From positions 1-64,000 of the IMG/VR virus record IMGVR_UViG_3300035663_000004: DNA of 64,000 nucleotides; one strand, 5' to 3'. The stretch comes from a virus. Every line of letters begins with the position of its first letter. Positions within the stretch are counted from its first letter, which is position 1. Below are positions 3,252 through 62,304 of this stretch, in pieces. The translations under genes were made by a program, and so were the position numbers. The notes under the pieces were generated by a model. It was not told where the DNA came from. It made no database searches and saw only the letters and a program-made list of their open reading frames with translations.

Positions 3252-5261
3252 TTAAAATGGTACAAAATCGCTGTCCGGTGTTTCGGTGCTGTACGCCGCG
3301 TAAAACGGCATATCAAGGTTGTCGGCGGATACCTTCTTTGGCGCATTGCCCGTTGTAAGGACGTTGTTGCTATCCGCATACATAATAAACGGATCGAACT
3401 TTGCGCCACGGCTGTTGTAGTGCTTTACTTCGATACTGTCGTCGGATACAGGCTCTACGCTCAAACTGGCATCGCACTTATCCAGCATCGTGTTGCCCAA
3501 GTGGCCGCGCGGTGTCTTGTCGCCTTTTGTCAAGTGGAGAACAGGGAATATCATACACCCGCGCTCCTGCCATGACGCCAACACTTCGCCCATAAAAGTA
3601 GCCTCCTCAAGCGAGTTGTAGTCCTTGCCCAAATCCTTTATCCCGTCAATTACAATAACAGCCGGGTCATACAACTTCACCATACGATCAATAAACCGTA
3701 TCCTGTCGGTAAAGTATAGGTGTTTAATACGCGCCGGAAATAGCAGGTCTTTTACGTCCTCCGTTGTTTTGTTTGCCGTTTTTAGTATCCGGCCTATGGT
3801 TTGCATAAACCAAAACGGTGCCTGCTCGGTGTCGTACCAAAATATCGGGCCACCGGGTTTAAAGACAAACGGATCGTTCTTGTGGTTGTCGCTCAAGGCT
3901 GCGCCCATAATTGACGCAATCAATGATGTCTTTCTCGACTTTTGCGCACCGAAAACTGGAATAAGCGCGCCGGGGAAGCCTACTCCGATTTCTTTTGTGC
4001 CATACCCTTGTCTCGATTCAACCCAAAAGGTATAAGGCTCCTGAGCACCTACAAAAGCCTGTGACGTAATCTCTTTGACGTATGCGTCAAATTCGATGTT
4101 GGTCATTGCCTCTACTTTTGACGGCGGCGCTTTTTTCAGATCAAGGTCAAACCTATAATCCTTTACCGGCTCGTGGTAAACCGGAAGTTCATTGTGTTCG
4201 CTTGCGGCTGGAACAAGCGTTGGCGCTGCGGTCAAAATGGTCTTTTTCTCCGGTTTGTATTTGAATCCATTTTTGGACGCAAGCCAAACGATTGTAGCTG
4301 CTCCTGCTGCCGCTCCCCCGGATCGCCCTATCGAGTTCCATTTCCTTTCCGCCCACTTTCTAAAGTTAGATACGGCGTACTGGGGCGAATTTTCCAAAAT
4401 ATTGTTTGCGATAACCCTTCCCGATTCTCCAAAAGCATTTTTGCAGGCGGCCATAACCTTGAGGTATTCGTGATAGCAGGTCGCTACATTGATCCTGTTT
4501 GTGATTATGTACCCGGCTGCGCTGGCTGCGCACTCGTCCTGCTGCGCAAGGCTGGAGAAGTTTATAGTTTCAGCGGGCAGTTCTTTGGTTTGGTAGTTCG
4601 GATCGAAGTGCAATGTATCTGCATCAGCGCAAACGTAAAGCGGGAATCCGGGGCGCTCGTAAAAAGCATAAACAGGCTGACTTGCGCCCAATTTATCAAA
4701 GTTGCTTTCGCTTATCGAAAGCAATTCCGACAAATACGATATGCCCGCATTAAGCGCTACTCCGTGCATTGTCTTGTCCGTGTTGTCGGTCTTCAGCAAA
4801 ATTTTTACCCCATAAGTGCTGGGCGACAATCCGGCCAAAATAATACCCGGAGGCGCAAGTTCTTTGATTAGATTCAAGACAACTATGGCGGATGCGTTTC
4901 CGCCTTCGTGCTTAAAATCAATGTCAATTTGCAGAACGCCGTTGTATTCAAGATTGGCGTTGTTGTGATGGATCAGGCAGAAGCCCGAAGCCAAAAAGTA
5001 AGGCAACTGGCTTTTTGCGTGTGACAATGCGCCTGCCGCTTCTTTGGTATTTTCAGAATATGCCTTTGCTGCAAGTTCCGGCAAATCCAAATACTCCGCT
5101 GGCGCAAAACCTTGCAGAATACCCACAAGTTCATCAAAGCCTATGCGCGTATTCGGGACGTGCTTTGCTTGTCCGTCATACACCTTGTTGTTGCTCCAGG
5201 CAAAAAATAGTTCACTCATGGCGGTTAAATTTGTTGTCAAGGATGAAAACCATGACGGCAA
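3252..5261 (-). CDS. Primase-helicase fusion (VirE-N/BT4734-like primase, PriCT-2, AAA_25 helicase)
   Basis: LQIDIDF and LSPSTYGVK primase motifs; YHEYLKVMAACK (PriCT-2); GAQKSRKT Walker A variant, IVIDGIKD Walker B, VLHLTK..PRGHLG; acidic C-terminal FVPF. Confidence 0.8.
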   Translation of the reverse strand: MPSWFSSLTTNLTAMSELFFAWSNNKVYDGQAKHVPNTRIGFDELVGILQGFAPAEYLDLPELAAKAYSENTKEAAGALSHAKSQLPYFLASGFCLIHHNNANLEYNGVLQIDIDFKHEGGNASAIVVLNLIKELAPPGIILAGLSPSTYGVKILLKTDNTDKTMHGVALNAGISYLSELLSISESNFDKLGASQPVYAFYERPGFPLYVCADADTLHFDPNYQTKELPAETINFSSLAQQDECAASAAGYIITNRINVATCYHEYLKVMAACKNAFGESGRVIANNILENSPQYAVSNFRKWAERKWNSIGRSGGAAAGAATIVWLASKNGFKYKPEKKTILTAAPTLVPAASEHNELPVYHEPVKDYRFDLDLKKAPPSKVEAMTNIEFDAYVKEITSQAFVGAQEPYTFWVESRQGYGTKEIGVGFPGALIPVFGAQKSRKTSLIASIMGAALSDNHKNDPFVFKPGGPIFWYDTEQAPFWFMQTIGRILKTANKTTEDVKDLLFPARIKHLYFTDRIRFIDRMVKLYDPAVIVIDGIKDLGKDYNSLEEATFMGEVLASWQERGCMIFPVLHLTKGDKTPRGHLGNTMLDKCDASLSVEPVSDDSIEVKHYNSRGAKFDPFIMYADSNNVLTTGNAPKKVSADNLDMPFYAAYSTETPDSDFVPF

Positions 5262-8706: not shown

Positions 8707-9311
8707 TGTATTGTAAGTTGTATTCCTTTAGCCATGCGTTTTTTTGCCTCGTTGTAGTAGTGTTCGTCAATTTCAAAGCCTACATAATTGAACCTCATAC
8801 TTTCGCAGGCAATCAAACTGGATGCGCTGCCAACGTGCGTATCTAAAATTAGGTCGCCCGGTTTGGCGTAATTTTCGAGGAGCCAGCGGTAAAGGGCTAC
8901 GGGTTTTTGGCATATATGAATCCTTTTCTCGGGCGTGTTTCTAACGTGTTTGGCTATTTTAGCGTTGGAATCAAAAGAAGCCCAAGCCATTTCGCAATCA
9001 GCCAAAGTATCCGTGTGTGTCTTTTTGTCCCATATTATAAAGCATCTTGAAGGAGGAAGGTTAAAATAGTTCCCGCCCCAAATTATTTGATTTTTTGATA
9101 CTCTAAATAGCTCATCAAAATAATTATTGTTTGGCTTTGTATCCCAAGCGGCATCTCCTTTTTTGTACTTGTCAGCCCAAGTTCCGCCTTGTGTAAGCTT
9201 GTCGCCTAACCCATACGGCGGATCAACGATTGCCAAATCAAAAAACTTATCCGGATAGGATGGTAGCCCGTATTCGGGGTTCATACAGTCGCCTAAAATA
9301 AACTTTTTCAT
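8703..9311 (-). CDS. DNA N6-adenine/N4-cytosine methyltransferase (beta class)
   Basis: DPPY, HICQKP, LDTHVGSASS, GFEID. Confidence 0.9.
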   Translation of the reverse strand: MKKFILGDCMNPEYGLPSYPDKFFDLAIVDPPYGLGDKLTQGGTWADKYKKGDAAWDTKPNNNYFDELFRVSKNQIIWGGNYFNLPPSRCFIIWDKKTHTDTLADCEMAWASFDSNAKIAKHVRNTPEKRIHICQKPVALYRWLLENYAKPGDLILDTHVGSASSLIACESMRFNYVGFEIDEHYYNEAKKRMAKGIQLTIQ

Positions 9312-9486
9312 TGTATTTAAAACATTTCGTTATCGTATTGGACTTGCTTACACAACTCCATTGCTTCCCAATATGTGGCCTGTTTCTTTTTTTTGACTCT
9401 CCGTTTTTTCTTCTTTGCGTCTGCAAAGATTTCATCGAATGGCTGGTAGCGATTGTTTTTCATTGTAAAAAAATTATAGTTAAAAA

Positions 9487-9696
9487 TTAGGTGGGTCGGG
9501 CTTGCAGGGAATCCCGATAATCAAACATTAGATCGTCAATTATTTCATATTTCCCGGTATTGACATGCCACCTTCCAACCATACAAAAAGGCTCATCTTC
9601 AAACCACCAGGGTAATCCGTCAAAATCGGTTGCCGCATATCGCGCCCAAGTCGGCGCGTCTTTCCAAGGGTATTGCATTTCCTTTTCCTTTTCCAT
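9487..9696 (-). CDS. Hypothetical phage protein
   Basis: WKDAPTWARYAATDFDG..WFE motif of small phage proteins. Confidence 0.6.
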   Translation of the reverse strand: MEKEKEMQYPWKDAPTWARYAATDFDGLPWWFEDEPFCMVGRWHVNTGKYEIIDDLMFDYRDSLQARPT

Positions 9697-9707
9697 AATA
9701 AAAAAAA

Positions 9708-10979
9708 TTAAAGATTGTAAAATAGTTGCCGGATCAATCCTTCGTCTTTGTGATATACAAACGCGGTTGCCCGGCGCATATTGCCTATGAATGCCATTTT
9801 ATCGTGCCATGAATCAGTTGGTTTTAAAGAGGGACAGGTTTCGATCTCCAGCCCGTTTATCTCATTGGTCTTATTGTGTATTGACCAAACGTCTTTTGCT
9901 CTTTTATGCAGGTGTCCTACCCTTGCAAAGCGATATTTACTCGTTGTCCAAAACTCGCATTCGGATGAAACTACCGCCTGTATGTTGGTATTCCGAACTA
10001 CATCGCCGTGCATATACGCCAACAAGTTTTTACCAAAAGAAACATATTGGCGTCCGTTCAAATTTGGCTCAGGAAATTTTACGTTTGTCTTTTGGCCTAC
10101 TTTCGATCTTACGATCTCGTGTAAGGATAAGGTAGCGTGGGTGTCATGGTTTCCGTACACAAAGGGAACGATAATATTTGACTTTGCCGGAAACATGGCT
10201 ATCGTATCGTTGACCAATTCGGCTGCAAATATAAGGGACTTAAACCAATTTGAGGAATATTCCATTTGCGTTCCTCGCGTTGTTGTGCCAAATAAATTAT
10301 CAATATGCAAAAAATCGTTTCCAATAGGCAGAATAACAGTACCTATGTTTTTTTTGTCACTCAGGAAATTTTTTATTGCATTAAACCAAACTTTCCTAAT
10401 TGTCTCATAGCTCCAATCGTCTTTTACCCCTATTGCGCCTATATGCAGGTCGGGTATCATAATCTCAAGAGCGCAATCCCCTAAAACAATTTGCTTCGGT
10501 TCTGTTGCTGGTGTAGGGGTTTGTGCGTATGCCTGCTCAAGCCATGAAACGATAATGTCCTTTGAAACGCCCGGCATTGTTTTTCGCTTCCATTCAACGG
10601 TAATTTGGTGAAGCGGATTGACAACAGGGTAATGCGTTCCGTCCGGCCTTTTCAGTTTCATTCCAACTTCCCAGTAGTTCGTTTTCAATTTGTGCTGCTC
10701 CCATATCTCGGTGTCAACTTTATGGTATTGTATCAGGTCTTCAACGGATCTCAAAAGTTCCGAATAGTGGCTTATCGTAAAGTCGTTATTGGTTTCCTGC
10801 TTTTCGTAAAATTCAATCTTGTGGTGTTCGTCCTGCGTTTTCAGCCTTTTCAACGCCTCCTCAATACCAAGCGCTTCGGCGGTTTGTATCAAATCGCCCC
10901 ATTGTTCTTTGGTAGCTACTCCGGTATTGAGGCGGCGTCTGTGTTGTTCTTGTGGCATTAGTGCTTTATTTTCAGGCAA
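9708..10979 (-). CDS. Calcineurin-like metallophosphoesterase with N-terminal extension
   Basis: PDLHIG, GNDFLH, GNHD, HGD, GHLH. Confidence 0.85.
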   Translation of the reverse strand: MPENKALMPQEQHRRRLNTGVATKEQWGDLIQTAEALGIEEALKRLKTQDEHHKIEFYEKQETNNDFTISHYSELLRSVEDLIQYHKVDTEIWEQHKLKTNYWEVGMKLKRPDGTHYPVVNPLHQITVEWKRKTMPGVSKDIIVSWLEQAYAQTPTPATEPKQIVLGDCALEIMIPDLHIGAIGVKDDWSYETIRKVWFNAIKNFLSDKKNIGTVILPIGNDFLHIDNLFGTTTRGTQMEYSSNWFKSLIFAAELVNDTIAMFPAKSNIIVPFVYGNHDTHATLSLHEIVRSKVGQKTNVKFPEPNLNGRQYVSFGKNLLAYMHGDVVRNTNIQAVVSSECEFWTTSKYRFARVGHLHKRAKDVWSIHNKTNEINGLEIETCPSLKPTDSWHDKMAFIGNMRRATAFVYHKDEGLIRQLFYNL

Positions 10980-10985
10980 ATATAA

Positions 10986-13900
10986 CTATTTGTTATAACC
11001 TTTAAACAAAGGAACAAAATTTTCTCCCCGAATGATCTTCCGGATTTCGTATTTGGTAAACTTTTTCTCCAGCATAATCCCCGCGATTTCCCTGTCTGTA
11101 AGTCCAAGTGCGCGTGCGTGCTTTATGTCTTTCTTCAGCGATTCGCATAATGCGTCTGTGCTAAACTTTGTAGTTTCAAACGCCTTGTTCAATTCCTTAA
11201 TTGCATCCTCGCGTGTTATTGCCCCATTGGCAACTTTCTTTTTTAAAGAACCAAGGGACTTTGTAAACACGGATCGCGCCTCTCCTTTGTCTGTGGAACG
11301 GTTATACATTCGGGTTCCAACTGCAACCTCCGGATTAAGCGTTTCGGTTTGTAGTCCTGCAAAACTTAATAAAACTTGGTCAAGTTCTTTGGGAATGCGA
11401 TTGCCTACCGACTCCTGTGTTGTTGCCATATAGAGGTCTTCGCCCGTTTTTACAAATCCGGGCTGCAACTGCCATACTAAAAATCGTCCTAAGTCCTTTA
11501 GGTTTTGTCCGGCCTCAACGCCTCCGTCTTCTTTGTCATACTTTAACAGCCACTCGCTTAACGCAAGGTTAGGGCGGTATATCCTTTGGTCATTCATTTC
11601 GTTTTTGTTTGACCAGGCCTGCCGGATTGCCCCCCAAACAAGGTTTTCAGAAACAAACGGCTCAACTAAATCATATCCGACCTGCGCTAAGCGTTTGCCT
11701 ATCGCCTTGTCTGTATCGGTTGTAAGGCGGTAGTATATCTTCTTGTAAAAGTTGTGCGGATCGGTGTATCCAAGATTGATAAAAGAGTAGGTTCCGTTTT
11801 TGTTTCCGGTATAGATAATCGTTGACGCCTGCTGCCACGGCTTTGAAAGGCTGCGGATTGCTTCGTCTTCCTCATCGTCTATGCCCATTAAGGCTTTGGC
11901 GTATGCCGCTGCTCCGAACGTCATACTTTGGAAAAACATGATACGCGCAAGGCGCAAAAATCCGTCAACCCGGAAGCGCGGATCGCGCATTTCCTCGATG
12001 GTTAGAGCAATCGTGTTTTTCGATGTTCTGAACATTTCAGCCGGGAACGCTACGAATGTTCCTGTGATAGGCCAGTTCCTAAATGCCTGAACGGCTTTAG
12101 GAACTTTTGAGTAGGTAGGCATAATATCCCGGACGATGCGCGCCGCCCGTTCCTCTGCAATCTTTGCCTGCTGTGGGGTTAATTGGTCAAAGTCTTTGCC
12201 GTATAAACCCCGCGCCGACCGCTGCCGCTCTTTAAGGTAGCCCATTACCTTAAAAATATCGTCCTCCATTTGGTACATATCCTCTGCGAACTGCAAGCCG
12301 TCTCTTACCCCGCGAATGCCTTTTGCGATCAGACGCTGGCGAAAGTTCCCGGTTTCGTAATCGTACAATCGCCCGGAAGACAAGTCCCAGTCGGCTCCTT
12401 CTGACTTCAGTTCGTCAATGGCTTTTTTAAGAACTTCCGATGTCGTCCCTGTTGAGATAATACCAAGTTCGGTCATGCGCTCTACTTCCGCTTGTCTTTC
12501 CTCGTTTGACTTTGGCCACAAACTTTGATGCACTACATTGAACGGGTCTCTAAAGCCAAATCCCTTTCGTGGATCAAGACTAAAGTATCCGTTCATGGCG
12601 CACAAATAAAGATTGGAAACAAAGTTCCTTGCGTGGGTAACGGGGCTTAATATCGTTTTGCCATATCGTATCGCGGAAACAAACTTGAGGTATGTTGCCC
12701 AAAAAGCATTTAATTCAGCACCCTCATACATTTCTTTCAAAGCCGTTTCAATTTCCGGGCTGGTGTACCATCCGTTTAACGGATCCATTGAAGGATTTTT
12801 TTCAGAACTTATTTGTCTGTAATATCCCGGAACAGGTGTGTCGGGCGGAAAAAAGAACTGGCCTTCAAATTGATCTTTGAGGCGCAGGAGCAGGTTTTGC
12901 GATTCAATCAGCGTGGCCATGCGCTGCATGGTCTTACCAAAATTTACGCGCGCGTCGCGGTATTCGCCTAACAGGTCGCGTATTTCTTCCGGTATATCCT
13001 TTCTTCCAATGAACGATGTAAGGTCTTTGCTGCCGGGTTTCCCGCGCTTCATAAACCCTTTTTGCTCTTGGTCTTTGTCAAGTATTTTGTCTATGTTAGC
13101 ATCAACGTTGGCTATTTGCTTTTGAAGTTCGGCTATCTTTTTACTTGGGTTGCTTTGTATGTCCAGGATTTTATCTTCCAAATCGGCATTCTTTCTGCGA
13201 AGTCCGGCAATTATTTTAGCCGACAATTTCATTTGATTGAAGTCGTCTCCGGGAATAAGGAGGATGTTTGCCAAATCTTCAGCAGCCATTTCCTTTGACT
13301 GGCGAAGCCTGGACGAAAGTTCGTTTATAATCTTTTGCTGGGCGTTTATTTGCCGTTGCGTGACCAAATTTGCGCGCCCTTTCTCGGCTGTAAACTGTGC
13401 CTGCTTTGAAGCAAGTTCGCTCATCCTTGCTTTAGCTTCCGCAAGCTGGTCTGAAATTTCCGTAACGATACGGTTTATCTTTGCGGTATTCGCGTCTATT
13501 TCATCCTGCAATTCGTCGGCGCTGGTATTCGCAAGGGTTTCAAGTTCATTAATTCTGCCCTGCCAAATTTCAATAAGTTTAGCTCTTGCCCTGTCCCTTA
13601 CGCCGGAATCAACGTTTTTGGCATACGACGGATCGTCATTAACCTTGTACGACCTGTAAAGGTAGGTTCCAAGTTCGTTTCCGTATCCGTCCAAAAATGC
13701 CTCAATCGCCATGTTCTCCTCTTTAGTCCGCTCGTTTGGCGACTTTTTGATAGCGCCCATAAACCCTTTCATCTCATTGTTACCGGCCAAATCAATTTGA
13801 ACGCCGCTGTTTTGCAGGACGGTCATAACAAATTTGTGGTTTCCTGCGCCTATGCGAACGATCTCCCGGCTCATACTGTCAATCGTTTGGCGCATTTCGC

Positions 13901-27368: not shown

Positions 27369-27515
27369 TTTTTTAAAAGTTTTTGTTAATAATTAAATTG
27401 CTCTGCAAATATACGATAACAATTTTATTAGCGCAACCTGTTAACATTTCGTTAACAAAAAGGGCGGACGATATTGCATCGCCCGCCCAATAATCAACCT
27501 CATGAAAAAATTTAC

Positions 27516-27701
27516 CTACTTACCTATTTCTGTAAGATGCTTGTTTAAGGCATCAAAGATCAGCTTGCTTCTTTCCTCTCCGCTTTTTGCGAGCCGCTCA
27601 ATCATCGGAAGCGGCAAGGATATGGATATGGAATAGCAGCGGTTTTCAGGATCAATCCGGGGTCGTCCCCGCTTTCCTTTTTTCTTTACTTTTTGTACCA
27701 T
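27516..27701 (-). CDS. Ribbon-helix-helix-like transcriptional regulator
   Basis: RGRPR AT-hook-like segment, SISISLP..MIERL..RSKLIFDAL. Confidence 0.65.
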   Translation of the reverse strand: MVQKVKKKGKRGRPRIDPENRCYSISISLPLPMIERLAKSGEERSKLIFDALNKHLTEIGK

Positions 27702-29220: not shown

Positions 29221-29275
29221 GTTTATAAAAATTTGCCCGCTCTCGGTTATGAGGGCGCGCGGGTGAAAAGATAAA

Positions 29276-29719
29276 CTAAATTTCTCCGTTGTCGGCAAAG
29301 CTGTAAAAATCGCCGTCGGGGGCTAAAATAATATGATCTAACAGAATAATATCTAACAATTTCCCCGCGTCGGCTATCGCCTTAGTTAGTTTCCGGTCTG
29401 CATCGCTGGGCCGGAGTTCTCCGCTCGGGTGGTTGTGCGCAATAATTAGCGCGCTGGCAAGACCTTTGCAGGCGGCCCCAAAAAGTATTTTTAAATCTAC
29501 AACTGTGCCGGCTATACCTCCGGCGGATAATTCTACAAGGCCTAAAACTTGGTTCCTTCTGTTTAGCAGGAGCGCTTTAAACTCCTCCTGCATTTCGATT
29601 TTTTTCGGGTTCCAGCTTTCGCGTAAAATTTCGTGCGCTGAATGCGACCCGGTAATTTTCGGCCGGTCTTTGGCTTTTACTTTGGCGCTATAAAAAAGGC
29701 TTATTTCCGCAACTTCCAT
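29276..29719 (-). CDS. radC: RadC / JAB (MPN+) domain protein
   Basis: QEEFKALLLN, GGIAGTVVD, HNHPSG..PSDAD, LLDHII. Confidence 0.93.
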   Translation of the reverse strand: MEVAEISLFYSAKVKAKDRPKITGSHSAHEILRESWNPKKIEMQEEFKALLLNRRNQVLGLVELSAGGIAGTVVDLKILFGAACKGLASALIIAHNHPSGELRPSDADRKLTKAIADAGKLLDIILLDHIILAPDGDFYSFADNGEI

Positions 29720-29771
29720 TTTTTATAAAAATTTGCCCGCTCTCGGTTATGAGGGCGGGCGGGTGAAATAA

Positions 29772-29969
29772 TTATTTTTCTGCTGGTTTAAAAAGCGCGT
29801 GCGCTGCAAATTTGTTACCGATAAAGTCTTCTATATTAAAAAAGGCAATTTTTCCGGATTTGTTGCGCTTATCGTATTGTTTTACCTTCCATCCTTTGCG
29901 GGTTCTCTGTAAAAGTTCTACTTTTATGTCCGCGTAAAAAACGTGCTGCCAAACTTGCCCTACTTCCAT
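29772..29969 (-). CDS. Small hypothetical early protein
   Basis: 65 aa, bracketed by repeat copies 2 and 3. Confidence 0.6.
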   Translation of the reverse strand: MEVGQVWQHVFYADIKVELLQRTRKGWKVKQYDKRNKSGKIAFFNIEDFIGNKFAAHALFKPAEK

Positions 29970-30019
29970 GTTTTAAAATTTTGCCCGCTCTCGGTTATGA
30001 GGGCGGGCGGGTGAAAAAA

Positions 30020-30334
30020 TTATTGTTGTTCTGGCTTCGGTTTGTCTGCTTGCGCGTGTTCGGGGTATCGCCTCAAAAACCCCAACCAAAAAGCCGGATA
30101 AACTTCTGCGAATTCGGGCGGGTTTAGTATTGCGGCGCGCTCAGAAAATATATATTCTTTTTGTGCTGTGCTGTGTTCTCCGGTTGCCAAATCGAAAACT
30201 TGGTAAAAGCCGGGGCGCTCTATTGCGACTACCGCCAAAATATAGTATTGAAATCTTGCTACCGCTGTTTGGCCGGGTTCGCAATATACTTCTAAATTGT
30301 CGGCTATGATGGCAAAAAACGGGGGCTTTTTCAC
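30020..30334 (-). CDS. Hypothetical early protein
   Basis: 104-aa ORF. Confidence 0.55.
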   Translation of the reverse strand: MKKPPFFAIIADNLEVYCEPGQTAVARFQYYILAVVAIERPGFYQVFDLATGEHSTAQKEYIFSERAAILNPPEFAEVYPAFWLGFLRRYPEHAQADKPKPEQQ

Positions 30335-32177: not shown

Positions 32178-32378
32178 TTATATACCGTCTTCGCTTGCCA
32201 TTATTCCGATAATAGCGCCAACAAGCGCAAACGCTGCATGGTAAAGCGTCCAAAGTACCCACAAAAGAATGTTTAACCTTTCGGGGCAGTAAGCGCTTCC
32301 GGCTGTTGCTGCGGCCAAAAATCCAGCGCCAACAAGCAAAGAAAAAACAATACTTAACACAATAATCAAATAACGCAT
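32178..32378 (-). CDS. Small two-TM membrane protein
   Basis: Two hydrophobic stretches. Confidence 0.6.
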   Translation of the reverse strand: MRYLIIVLSIVFSLLVGAGFLAAATAGSAYCPERLNILLWVLWTLYHAAFALVGAIIGIMASEDGI

Positions 32379-32406
32379 AATTTTAATATTTTAAATTGAA
32401 AAAATT

Positions 32407-32482
32407 TAGCCTGCCTCGTCAGGTGCGGGGGGCAAGTTCCGCACTACGCCGCGGGGTCGCGGCGTTTCGGCTTATCGGGCTA
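32407..32482 (-). ncRNA. Type II hammerhead ribozyme
   Basis: Minus strand: UAGCC-cgauaa-GCC GAAA CGCCGCG accc CGCGGCG UA^ GUGCGG (10-nt loop) CCGCAC CUGACGA GGC-a-GGCUA; all core nucleotides and three helices present. Confidence 0.9.
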
Positions 32483-32600
32483 TCCGAGTCCCGCAGCCTT
32501 CGCCGACTTTGCCGATGCCGTGGGAAGTTGCGCAGGATTGCAGGCAGATGGCACCGAAAATAAGCGCGAAAACAAAAGTAACAAAAGTAGATTTTTTCAT
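32472..32600 (-). CDS. 42-aa lipoprotein (entericidin-like)
   Basis: Manual translation MKKSTFVTFVFALIFGAICLQSC-ATSHGIGKVGEGCGTRIAR*; lipobox LQSC; below the ORF-track cutoff. Confidence 0.7.
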   Translation of the reverse strand: MKKSTFVTFVFALIFGAICLQSCATSHGIGKVGEGCGTRIAR

Positions 32601-32640: not shown

Positions 32641-32671
32641 CAAAGATAAGGGCGCTTTTTGCATCTGTCAA
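32641..32671 (-). promoter_or_regulatory. Early-operon promoter (TTG -33 / TATCTTTG -7)
   Basis: Plus-strand CAAAGATA at 32641-48 and caa at 32669-71, 20-nt spacer. Confidence 0.7.
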
Positions 32672-33180
32672 GTATTTTTTCCCTGTTAACATTTCATTAA
32701 CAAATAGGAATATAGTAATAATAGGAACGCGCGCGCGCGTATGTGTGTGCGGGCTGCGCTGTCCTTCTCCCTACCTTTGCCCCTACCTTTCTCCTTACCT
32801 GAATTACGGGCAGCGCGTGGAGTATTGCGCGCGCTGGTCGCGTTCGCTGCGCCGGTGCCGTCCGTCTGTGCGCGCGTCTGCTGCTGCTGCTATCTTTTGG
32901 CCTACTCTTTTCCCTTGTTTCTTTTTGCGCGGTTATTTAATGCGCTGGGCTGCAATACATTACGCGCGTTTGTTGAATGTATGCGTATTAATGCAAGTTT
33001 GTTTTGCGCCTCCATTTAAGCGATTCCGGCCGAGCTTGCGCACGAATCGCGCGCGCCGGATATATAGGAAACGCGCGCCCGGGGTGGTTTGCGATTTCGA
33101 TTTCGGAACGCCGCCGACCGCCCCACCACCTATACATCAACCGGCAGCGTGTATCCTAATTAAAAAAAACAAGAAAAAAA

Positions 33181-33212
33181 TTTGCTATCAATAATAATCG
33201 CCTGTATCTTTG
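33181..33212 (+). promoter_or_regulatory. Promoter for the chaperonin/fibre operon (TTTG -33 / TATCTTTG -7)
   Basis: TTTG 33181-84, TATCTTTG 33205-12, 20-nt spacer. Confidence 0.75.
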
Positions 33213-33241: not shown

Positions 33242-33352
33242 ATGCAGCAACAACAACGCTATCGAACTCCAATCCTGCCATGGATTCTACTGCTCACTTC
33301 CGCCTTGGCTTTGGCCTGTTTCTTTGTCGAGGCAAAATCGTTAACAATCTAA
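33242..33352 (+). CDS. 36-aa single-TM peptide
   Basis: MQQQQRYRTPILPWILLLTSALALACFFVEAKSLTI*, A-rich leader. Confidence 0.45.
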   Translation: MQQQQRYRTPILPWILLLTSALALACFFVEAKSLTI

Positions 33353-61318: not shown

Positions 61319-61500
61319 AAAGGTTCGCCGTCGCATAGCGCTAACAATGCCTGTGCGCGCTGGTATGCCTTGAGTCCGGTCGCTGGCTTGGGCTTAGGCG
61401 TGCGTGTTTTGGGGCGTTTGGGGCGGACGGGGGAAAATGGATCGAGTTTCATAATTCAGAAAAAATGCCCCGGCAAACACAAGTTCGCCGGGGCGTGTTA

Positions 61501-62304
61501 CTATATAAGGTGTTCGTCTACCTGTTCGGTAGGTTCGTCCGTGTATTCAATATATTCGGCGTCTGTGGCTTCGGTGGCAGGCTTAGCAGCGTTCGCCGTT
61601 GTGATTGCGGCGTTAATATCCGCTGCTGCCTGACGTGACGCCGGGGCTGGCTTCGCCGGGGCTGGTGCTGCGTGCTGGGCGCTAATTGCGGCGTTCAACT
61701 GATCAACGACCGGTATAGGCGAAGAAGGCACGCGCGGCGGCGTAACGTCGTGATATTCGATGTCGTGTACTTCGTCAGCGGTGAGTAGTCCCATCGCTAC
61801 CTCCGGGGCGTACAGGCGCGAAAAGAACGCGGCGGCACGGTAACGCAGCATCAAGTCCGGCATTGACTGCCACTTACTGCCTGTCTTGCTGAACCATCCC
61901 TCTTTTTTTGCCATCCCAATTGAAACGGGCGGCCCCTCCAAAATTTCGCCGCTGGCCAAGTCCTTAGCGACGGCGAAACATTGCCGCGCATCACCGTCGC
62001 CGGATAACTGAAAGCGGAGCGGGGAAAACTTGCCTGACGTATTGATACAGGCGATTAGGTACGTCGCTGACCACGACGGCCGGCCGTGTATGATATGCAG
62101 GTTCTGCATCACCATCAGCGGTGACGTGCCGATGCGGTTCGCCATTTCCAGCGCCACGAGGCAGTTCGCGATGTTGCCTTGGTAGTCCTTTGGCACCATC
62201 GTGGTGGTGGACAGCATTTTCGCCACGCGCTGCCCCTGCTCGAAAGCATCGCCGCTGGCATATACGCTGACGTTTTGCGGCTGGATTGAAAGTTCTTTTT
62301 TCAT
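61501..62304 (-). CDS. recT: RecT/Red-beta-like single-strand annealing protein
   Basis: VPKDYQG..NCLVA, MQNLHIIHGRPSWS, AKKEGW..KWQSMPDLMLRYRA. Confidence 0.75.
   Translation of the reverse strand: MKKELSIQPQNVSVYASGDAFEQGQRVAKMLSTTTMVPKDYQGNIANCLVALEMANRIGTSPLMVMQNLHIIHGRPSWSATYLIACINTSGKFSPLRFQLSGDGDARQCFAVAKDLASGEILEGPPVSIGMAKKEGWFSKTGSKWQSMPDLMLRYRAAAFFSRLYAPEVAMGLLTADEVHDIEYHDVTPPRVPSSPIPVVDQLNAAISAQHAAPAPAKPAPASRQAAADINAAITTANAAKPATEATDAEYIEYTDEPTEQVDEHLI

Follow-up and report, generated by a model that had tools for sequence, protein, structure and literature searches.

The window, by which we mean the whole 64,000-nucleotide stretch of viral DNA analysed here, carries a complete type II hammerhead of 65 nt at 32471-32407 of its minus (mRNA) strand. 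Judging from its sequence and from that of its relatives, the element is most likely a functional and conserved ribozyme. It follows the first gene of a promoter-proximal operon made up of small accessory genes, and its one peculiarity is that the pseudoknot joining loop I to the 3' tail carries a mismatch fixed in this lineage.

Architecture of the ribozyme

The first-pass annotation of this DNA had recognised a complete hammerhead of type II in the mRNA strand. This is confirmed by the core, the three helices, the topology and an end-to-end alignment with the Rfam family Hammerhead_II (RF02276), and the coordinates given in that annotation are all exact on the minus strand when checked against the sequence. 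Reading of the motif gives a stem I of 6 bp, a stem II of 3 bp and a stem III of 7 bp. Every element of the hammerhead core is found, namely C3 U4 G5 A6 N7 G8 A9, G12 A13 A14, the pair A15.1-U16.1 and an H17 that is not G. The parts follow each other in the order of the type II permutation, GCC-GAAA-stem III hairpin-UA-stem I hairpin-CUGACGA-GGC, with stem II open and stems I and III capped. The individual parts, in the direction of the transcript, are as follows.

32407-32471, minus strand: type II hammerhead ribozyme, from the 5' strand of stem II to the end of the 3' tail (full-length RF02276 match of 36.2 bits; column alignment; conserved in the relatives L058 and X5)
32471-32469, minus strand: stem II 5' strand, GCC (sequence)
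32465-32468, minus strand: core GAAA, comprising G12 A13 A14 and A15.1 (sequence, RF02276 alignment)
32447-32464, minus strand: stem III, CGCCGCG/CGCGGCG, 7 bp, loop ACCC (sequence; X5 alters only the loop and its closing pair)
32446-32445, minus strand: U16.1-A17, UA (sequence)
32444-32445, minus strand: predicted scissile bond, after A17 (32445) and before G1.1 (32444) (position of the GUA triplet relative to the core)
32423-32444, minus strand: stem I, GUGCGG/CCGCAC, 6 bp, with the 10-nt loop I AACUUGCCCC (sequence, family alignment)
32435-32431, minus strand: UUGCC of loop I, aligned with the family pseudoknot strand UAGCC (alignment)
32416-32422, minus strand: core CUGACGA, C3 U4 G5 A6 C7 G8 A9 (sequence; position 7 is U in L058)
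32407-32415, minus strand: stem II 3' strand GGC (32415-32413), spacer A (32412) and 3' tail GGCUA (32411-32407) (family; PMC3088659)

The GUA triplet puts the scissile bond at 32445/32444. The RF02276 alignment covers 32472-32405 and model positions 1-66 of 66, and it scores 36.2 bits against a gathering score of 37; at gathering thresholds, Rfam reports no family. The model expects a stem II of 2 bp, and the element here has 3 bp. The E value of the match is 5.4e-6 in a local search and 1.2e-3 when the whole 64-kb window is searched on both strands with all 4227 families. No other ribozyme family was found by the Rfam search of the 64-kb window, and RF02276 has one match only in the 87.5-kb record, which therefore lacks clustered ribozymes of the kind drawn in Figure 3 of PMC3088659. 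Sub-threshold matches to NsiR1 (34 bits versus 39) and to the L20 leader (31.3 versus 58.7), at window 61459-61523 and 27450-27579 (minus), are probably chance. In the minimum-energy fold from nearest-neighbour parameters, the 5' strand of stem II pairs with the distal GGCU and not in the catalytic register; such folds are unlike across the three variants compared below (the window, L058 and X5) and do not discriminate between structural models.

Operon context

The ribozyme lies between two small genes near the start of an operon, for which the following features are relevant.

32641-32671, minus strand: Bacteroidota-type promoter (TTG, 20 nt, TAtcTTTG), start of the operon transcript (motif scan; near-identical in L058)
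32472-32600, minus strand: first gene, a 42-aa ORF with a signal peptide and a lipobox-like QSC (putative small lipoprotein); stop codon UAA at 32474-32472 (conservation)
32178-32378, minus strand: next gene, a 66-aa ORF, by eye a two-helix membrane protein, starting 28 nt past the ribozyme tail (absent in L058)

The promoter at 32671-32641 stands approximately 40 nt ahead of the start codon of the lipoprotein ORF. Motif scanning finds 14 promoter sites of the Bacteroidota type in the window versus approximately 3 in shuffled sequences, and a second promoter of this type lies in the opposite orientation at 33182-33212. The 66-aa ORF is followed by a 137-aa ORF (phrog_7028, unknown function) and then by more small ORFs without family hits. 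The upstream gene had been called an early gene, a label that is drawn from the operon layout only. Two metatranscriptome runs provide a single RNA contig, at 33251-33300 only, which has no bearing on expression or cleavage of the ribozyme.

Other repeated elements are found in the same region. A 67-nt repeat occurs three times further down the operon (29223-29289, 29723-29789 and 29971-30037; 76-100% identity), and each copy reads on the minus strand as a GC-rich hairpin followed by AAAUUUUU at a gene junction, so that these repeats look like terminators or processing hairpins. A 12-nt tandem repeat with the unit AGGTAGGGAGAA (one strand) lies between the divergent promoters, with 3 copies at window 32765-32800 and 7 copies at 11171-11254 of L058. 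It may be a variable regulatory or origin-like array. In run X5 the segment at 32799-32905 is replaced. The U-run past the ribozyme tail was considered as a terminator and rejected, with no conserved hairpin adjoining it.

Conservation in relatives

Neither megablast nor blastn matched the region to anything in the phage collection, and protein-guided searches for the locus (GroEL, the 137-aa ORF, an alignment of its homologues and an alignment of the lipoprotein) gave no close relative covering it. The protein-guided searches returned one contig that ends before the locus (L002), one spurious 12-residue hit (L003) and distant relatives (L004-L006); homologues of the neighbour protein (P0002-P0006) are 82-91% identical. 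Lineage-specific DNA patterns matched nothing in viral or genome contigs and recovered one metagenome relative, L058. A second variant comes from a DNA contig of run X5 that spans 32400-32540.

L058 is a syntenic metagenome contig of 14.7 kb in which the promoter and leader are almost identical to those of the window. Its gene order is a 41-aa lipoprotein ORF (11418-11543), the ribozyme and then the 137-aa gene. The 3' edge of the ribozyme reads as a mosaic junction between gene cassettes because the 66-aa ORF is absent from L058 (compared at 11600-11640) and the 137-aa gene follows at once. Over the final 15 codons of the ORF, L058 differs from the window by 9 synonymous and 0 non-synonymous changes. 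The 42-aa ORF therefore encodes a genuine peptide, kept by purifying selection. L058 has exactly the same final 15 residues (GIGKVGEGCGTRIAR), while its signal peptide has diverged strongly and shows indels; the mature lipopeptide would be only about 20 residues long.

Within the 65 nt of the ribozyme, L058 carries two differences, C to U at position 7, the only free position of the core, and A to U in the spacer that separates GGC from GGCUA, and it scores 30.3 bits with RF02276. The search pattern that recovered L058 fixed 27 of the 65 ribozyme positions, so part of this identity is imposed. Among the 38 positions that the pattern left free, 2 are changed versus at least 8 predicted from flanking rates of 21-63% per site; by our own estimate, the binomial P for 2 changes in 38 at the lowest flanking rate is approximately 0.008. 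The downstream spacer of L058 is strongly diverged from that of the window, its junction is 1 nt shorter, and its stop codon overlaps stem II (UAG-CC, distance -1).

The X5 contig has four substitutions in the ORF, all at synonymous third positions, and two changes in the ribozyme, both confined to the loop of stem III and the pair that closes it; the comparison lists none over 32400-32452. It also carries, where stop codon and ribozyme meet (window 32466), an 8-nt tandem duplication, which lies outside the ribozyme, reads UAAGCCGC-UAAGCC-GAAAC and doubles both the stop codon and the 5' strand of stem II. Short AT-rich matches and loose ends of X5 at 32394-32406 are probably from other organisms. 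The core and the helices are thus kept in L058 and in X5, and there are no compensatory pairs among the three close variants. The ribozyme is under selection because the changes in L058 and X5 fall only at tolerated positions while the flanks drift, and this substitution pattern argues for a functional ribozyme.

A hammerhead in a comparable position is found in a distant phage, L057, in which a 144-aa protein is 40% identical to the 137-aa ORF of the window. Its type II hammerhead (1501-1568, 31.7 bits) lies just after the 144-aa gene and before an ArdA-like gene (1612-2079; Pfam 26.3 bits versus a cut-off of 27), has C at position 7 as well and has no obvious pseudoknot. This layout recalls the association of hammerheads with ardA that Perreault et al. 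noted in 2011 (PMC3088659). No antirestriction link is proposed for the window, whose 145-aa ORF is dissimilar to the ArdA-like protein of L057 and has no Pfam or PADLOC hit.

Family members and the pseudoknot between loop I and the tail

A 16-mer, CUGANGAGGCAGGCUA, pulled out approximately 20 hammerheads from viral contigs. Thirteen phage hammerheads share the 3' half CUGANGAGGC-N-GG(C/U)(U/C)A and align column by column with the window, including the 10-nt loop I. Six of these relatives were scored with RF02276 and reach 37.6-57.9 bits; they are therefore members at the level of the curated family. Their loop I contains UAGCC or a compatible variant that is complementary to the tail GGCUA. 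The two strands covary, with UGACC facing the tail GGUCA in L020 (a double compensation) and wobble-compatible variants in L014 and L053. A pseudoknot between loop I and the tail has been described for the majority of type II hammerheads, not for all (PMC3088659). It is needed for fast cleavage, and shortening or mutating it slowed cleavage 20- to 100-fold at 0.5 mM Mg (PMC3088659).

The signal of this pseudoknot is seen in a larger set. Loop I forms at least 5 pairs with its own tail in 32 of 137 hammerheads versus 5.5 of 137 when tails are swapped, and the signal is therefore real. At least 4 contiguous pairs are present in 59 of the 137, and 3 or fewer in the other 78. The element studied here is in the latter group. 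The window, X5 and L058 all have UUGCC in loop I, followed by C where the family has U, which leaves 3 contiguous G-C pairs, a U-U mismatch and one U-A pair, and the sixth pair is lost. Loop I and the tail are invariant across the three variants. The comparison with the family suggests that the tail GGCUA most likely docks on UUGCC as a weakened form of the family pseudoknot. A different pairing, of CUUGCC in loop I with GGCAGG, was rejected because the change of the spacer to U in L058 breaks it.

The same searches gave several observations on other phages. Two unrelated viral contigs hold dense groups of matches to the hammerhead pattern, with 8 in 4 kb (L069, 890-4792) and 5 in 2.3 kb (L079, 10788-13090). 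L053 contains three type II hammerheads above the Rfam cut-off together with two sub-threshold twister-P1 matches (50-52 bits versus 67), at 4123-4174, 4607-4658 and 8791-10599. Six contigs of approximately 41 kb from sample 3300045988 (L015, L021, L029, L043, L050 and L054) carry an identical hammerhead behind at least 4 different upstream genes; this is either repeated punctuation within one phage type or an exchange between related phages.

Stop codon and upstream coding sequence

The first-pass annotation had singled out the contact between the ribozyme and the stop codon of the upstream gene. The UAA is indeed flush with stem II (distance 0), but this position is not special. In a first set, 12 of 15 hammerheads had the stop of an upstream ORF (at least 41 aa) ending 2-6 nt before GAAA. 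Among 101 hammerheads, the spacing between the last base of the stop codon and the start of stem II is -1 nt in 11 cases, 0 nt in 21 cases and between -1 and +5 nt in 70 cases altogether, so the 0 of the window and the -1 of L058 are typical values. The simplest reading of the flush stop codon is compaction, in which the gap between stop and ribozyme needs nothing and the next gene needs a leader. The wording "stop codon" is absent from the 2011 paper on type II hammerheads (PMC3088659).

A second proposal concerned a short sequence within the last codons of the lipoprotein ORF.

32478-32482, minus strand: UAGCC, codons 40-41, complementary to the tail and without support as a structure (sequence; UAGCG in L058)

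On the minus strand the order is UAGCC, then CGA, then the stop UAA. The annotation had paired UAGCC with the tail GGCUA as a distal helix II whose internal loop holds the stop codon, and had proposed that a ribosome could melt this helix and make cleavage dependent on translation. The 5-bp complementarity is present, but as a structure it stands at chance level, is opposed by an uncompensated change in L058 and has its distance from the ribozyme altered by the 8-nt insertion in X5. The frequency was measured on 101 different type II hammerheads that a less biased search by pattern had gathered, by comparing the 12-nt tail with the 30 nt upstream and with a control segment 100 nt further up. 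A complement of at least 5 bp was found upstream in 12 of the 101 and in the control segment in 17 of the 101; with a 9-nt tail, the upstream complement was found in 10 of 137. From these counts against the control, the upstream signal is therefore not real. A conserved and compensated helix between coding sequence and ribozyme, as a translation-coupled switch would show, is not seen, and translation-dependent cleavage is speculation that carries no comparative signal.

Alternative readings

Several points nevertheless speak for the distal helix. The energy model gives approximately -3.8 kcal/mol for adding UAGCC/GGCUA to the hammerhead fold, each variant has an upstream partner of 4-5 bp for the tail approximately 5-6 nt from stem II (UAGCC in the window, AGCC in X5, from the duplication, and UAGC in L058), and the stop codon is no further from stem II than a ribosome footprint reaches. 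Against this stand, besides the chance frequency, the loss of the innermost pair in L058 by a synonymous change from GCC to GCG with no compensation, and the alteration of the supposed internal loop by a 1-nt deletion (L058) and an 8-nt insertion (X5) while loop I and the tail stay constant. The family GGCUA covaries with loop I, as in L020, and lengthening of stem II lowered the activity of the type II ribozyme in which it was tested (PMC3088659). The mechanism itself presents a further difficulty, in that a ribosome on the stop codon would, going by ribosome footprints in general, also cover GCC-GAAA and the foot of stem III, and so would briefly unfold the core and not act via the distal helix. 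Taking these points together, we regard translation-dependent cleavage through an extended helix II as unlikely. A related proposal is a natural folding switch, in which an untranslated message holds the tail in a slow, extended helix II and ribosomes over codons 40-41 free it for the pseudoknot, or the reverse; this seems to us quite unlikely. Its starting point is that the fixed U-U mismatch has weakened the usual docking site in loop I, whereas codons 40-41 offer the tail a perfect complement. If it were true, cleavage of the operon mRNA would serve as a readout of first-gene translation.

The weakened pseudoknot allows another explanation, in which the hammerhead is decaying or very slow, largely inactivated at cellular Mg by the U-U mismatch and kept by a young lineage or as stabilising hairpins. 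The reduction to 3 contiguous G-C pairs and an isolated U-A, the 20-100-fold cost in rate of pseudoknot defects (PMC3088659), the sub-threshold Rfam scores (36.2 for the window and 30.3 for L058 versus 37) and a GUA triplet in place of the usual GUC are all consistent with it. However, the catalytic nucleotides are intact in all three variants, and essential positions have been spared while synonymous and intergenic neighbours changed freely. The mismatch is common to all three variants, and the lineage has therefore lived with it. Many natural hammerheads also have no recognisable pseudoknot (PMC3088659), and the count of 78 of 137 with 3 or fewer contiguous pairs points the same way. Decay is thus an improbable account of the element. 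Chance likeness, by which a GC-rich pair of intergenic hairpins happens to fit the hammerhead consensus, would agree with a score under the gathering cut-off and with the single copy in the record, but it is scarcely credible given an E value of 1.2e-3 even for the whole window against 4227 families, a full-length alignment in which every invariant position is present, a 3' half and a 10-nt loop length that agree with curated-level members, and conservation of the element in relatives.

Proposed mechanism and function

A functional type II hammerhead that cuts its own operon transcript after the first gene is, in our judgement, a probable explanation of the locus and the best one overall. The motif, the family membership by alignment, the conservation and the position are shown, and cleavage itself, use of the pseudoknot and the effects on expression are inferred. 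The operon of small accessory genes would be transcribed from the Bacteroidota-type promoter at 32671-32641, and the three-way junction would fold once the 3' strand of the ribozyme is made. The GGCUA tail would then dock on the UUGCC of loop I in the weakened pseudoknot, and the RNA would cut itself between 32445 and 32444, either co- or post-transcriptionally. The upstream product would be a message of approximately 190 nt that comprises the leader, the lipoprotein ORF and its stop codon, and that ends in the stem III hairpin with a 2',3'-cyclic phosphate. The lipoprotein message would keep its stop codon, 27 nt from its end. The downstream product would begin with a 5'-OH and the stem I hairpin and would carry the 66-aa gene, the 137-aa gene and those that follow. 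The two halves of the message could differ in stability and translation.

The separation of the lipoprotein message from the downstream operon, with a 5'-OH left behind, had already been suggested for this locus, and it finds support as what is usually inferred for hammerheads of phages (PMC3088659; PMC6765202). Cleavage by type II hammerheads has been demonstrated both in vitro and in living cells (PMC3088659; PMC8782182). The roles proposed for such ribozymes are to process polycistronic phage transcripts and to give the resulting halves a different stability or translation, the latter still unproven (PMC3088659; PMC6765202).

Comparison with known systems

Both the kind of element and its position flush with a stop codon are already common in phages. 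The ribozyme has the same topology, core and short stem II as the RF02276 type II hammerheads of bacteria, prophages and phage metagenomes (PMC3088659). Its 3' half GGC-A-GGCUA is identical to that of many phage members, its loop I has 10 nt as in L015, L021 and L050, and its setting between two small phage genes is also the same. It differs from them in having UUGCC and not UAGCC in loop I and C and not U as the next base, which reduces a pseudoknot of 5-6 pairs to 3 contiguous pairs and one more. The GUA triplet, the C at position 7, the occurrence as a single copy and not in an array, and a score 0.8 bit under the cut-off also set it apart.

Three type II hammerheads of Desulfovibrio vulgaris that lie near phage-like genes were found to be active in vivo by cyPhyRNA-seq (PMC8782182). 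They demonstrate cleavage of such elements in cells and a way to map the ends. They belong to the same class and have a phage-related context as well, whereas the host phylum and the neighbour genes differ. Hammerhead arrays that punctuate operons of phage accessory genes have the same stop codon flush on stem II, and the next gene starts a few tens of nucleotides past the tail; here, in contrast, a lone ribozyme follows the first gene, and other junctions of the operon bear hairpin repeats.

The element leaves general knowledge of ribozymes unchanged and adds one more well-placed case to the thousands of phage hammerheads with a function that is only inferred. It belongs to a freshwater (lake-water) phage with Bacteroidota-type promoters and occurs as a single ribozyme after a first small gene. 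Its practical value is that of a simple test case, with one promoter, one short ORF and one ribozyme. The natural variants, namely the pseudoknot mismatch, the 8-nt duplication at the junction and the 1-nt overlap with the stop codon, are suited to asking whether cutting alters how stable the two halves are or how well they are translated, and whether having the stop codon flush with stem II makes a difference.
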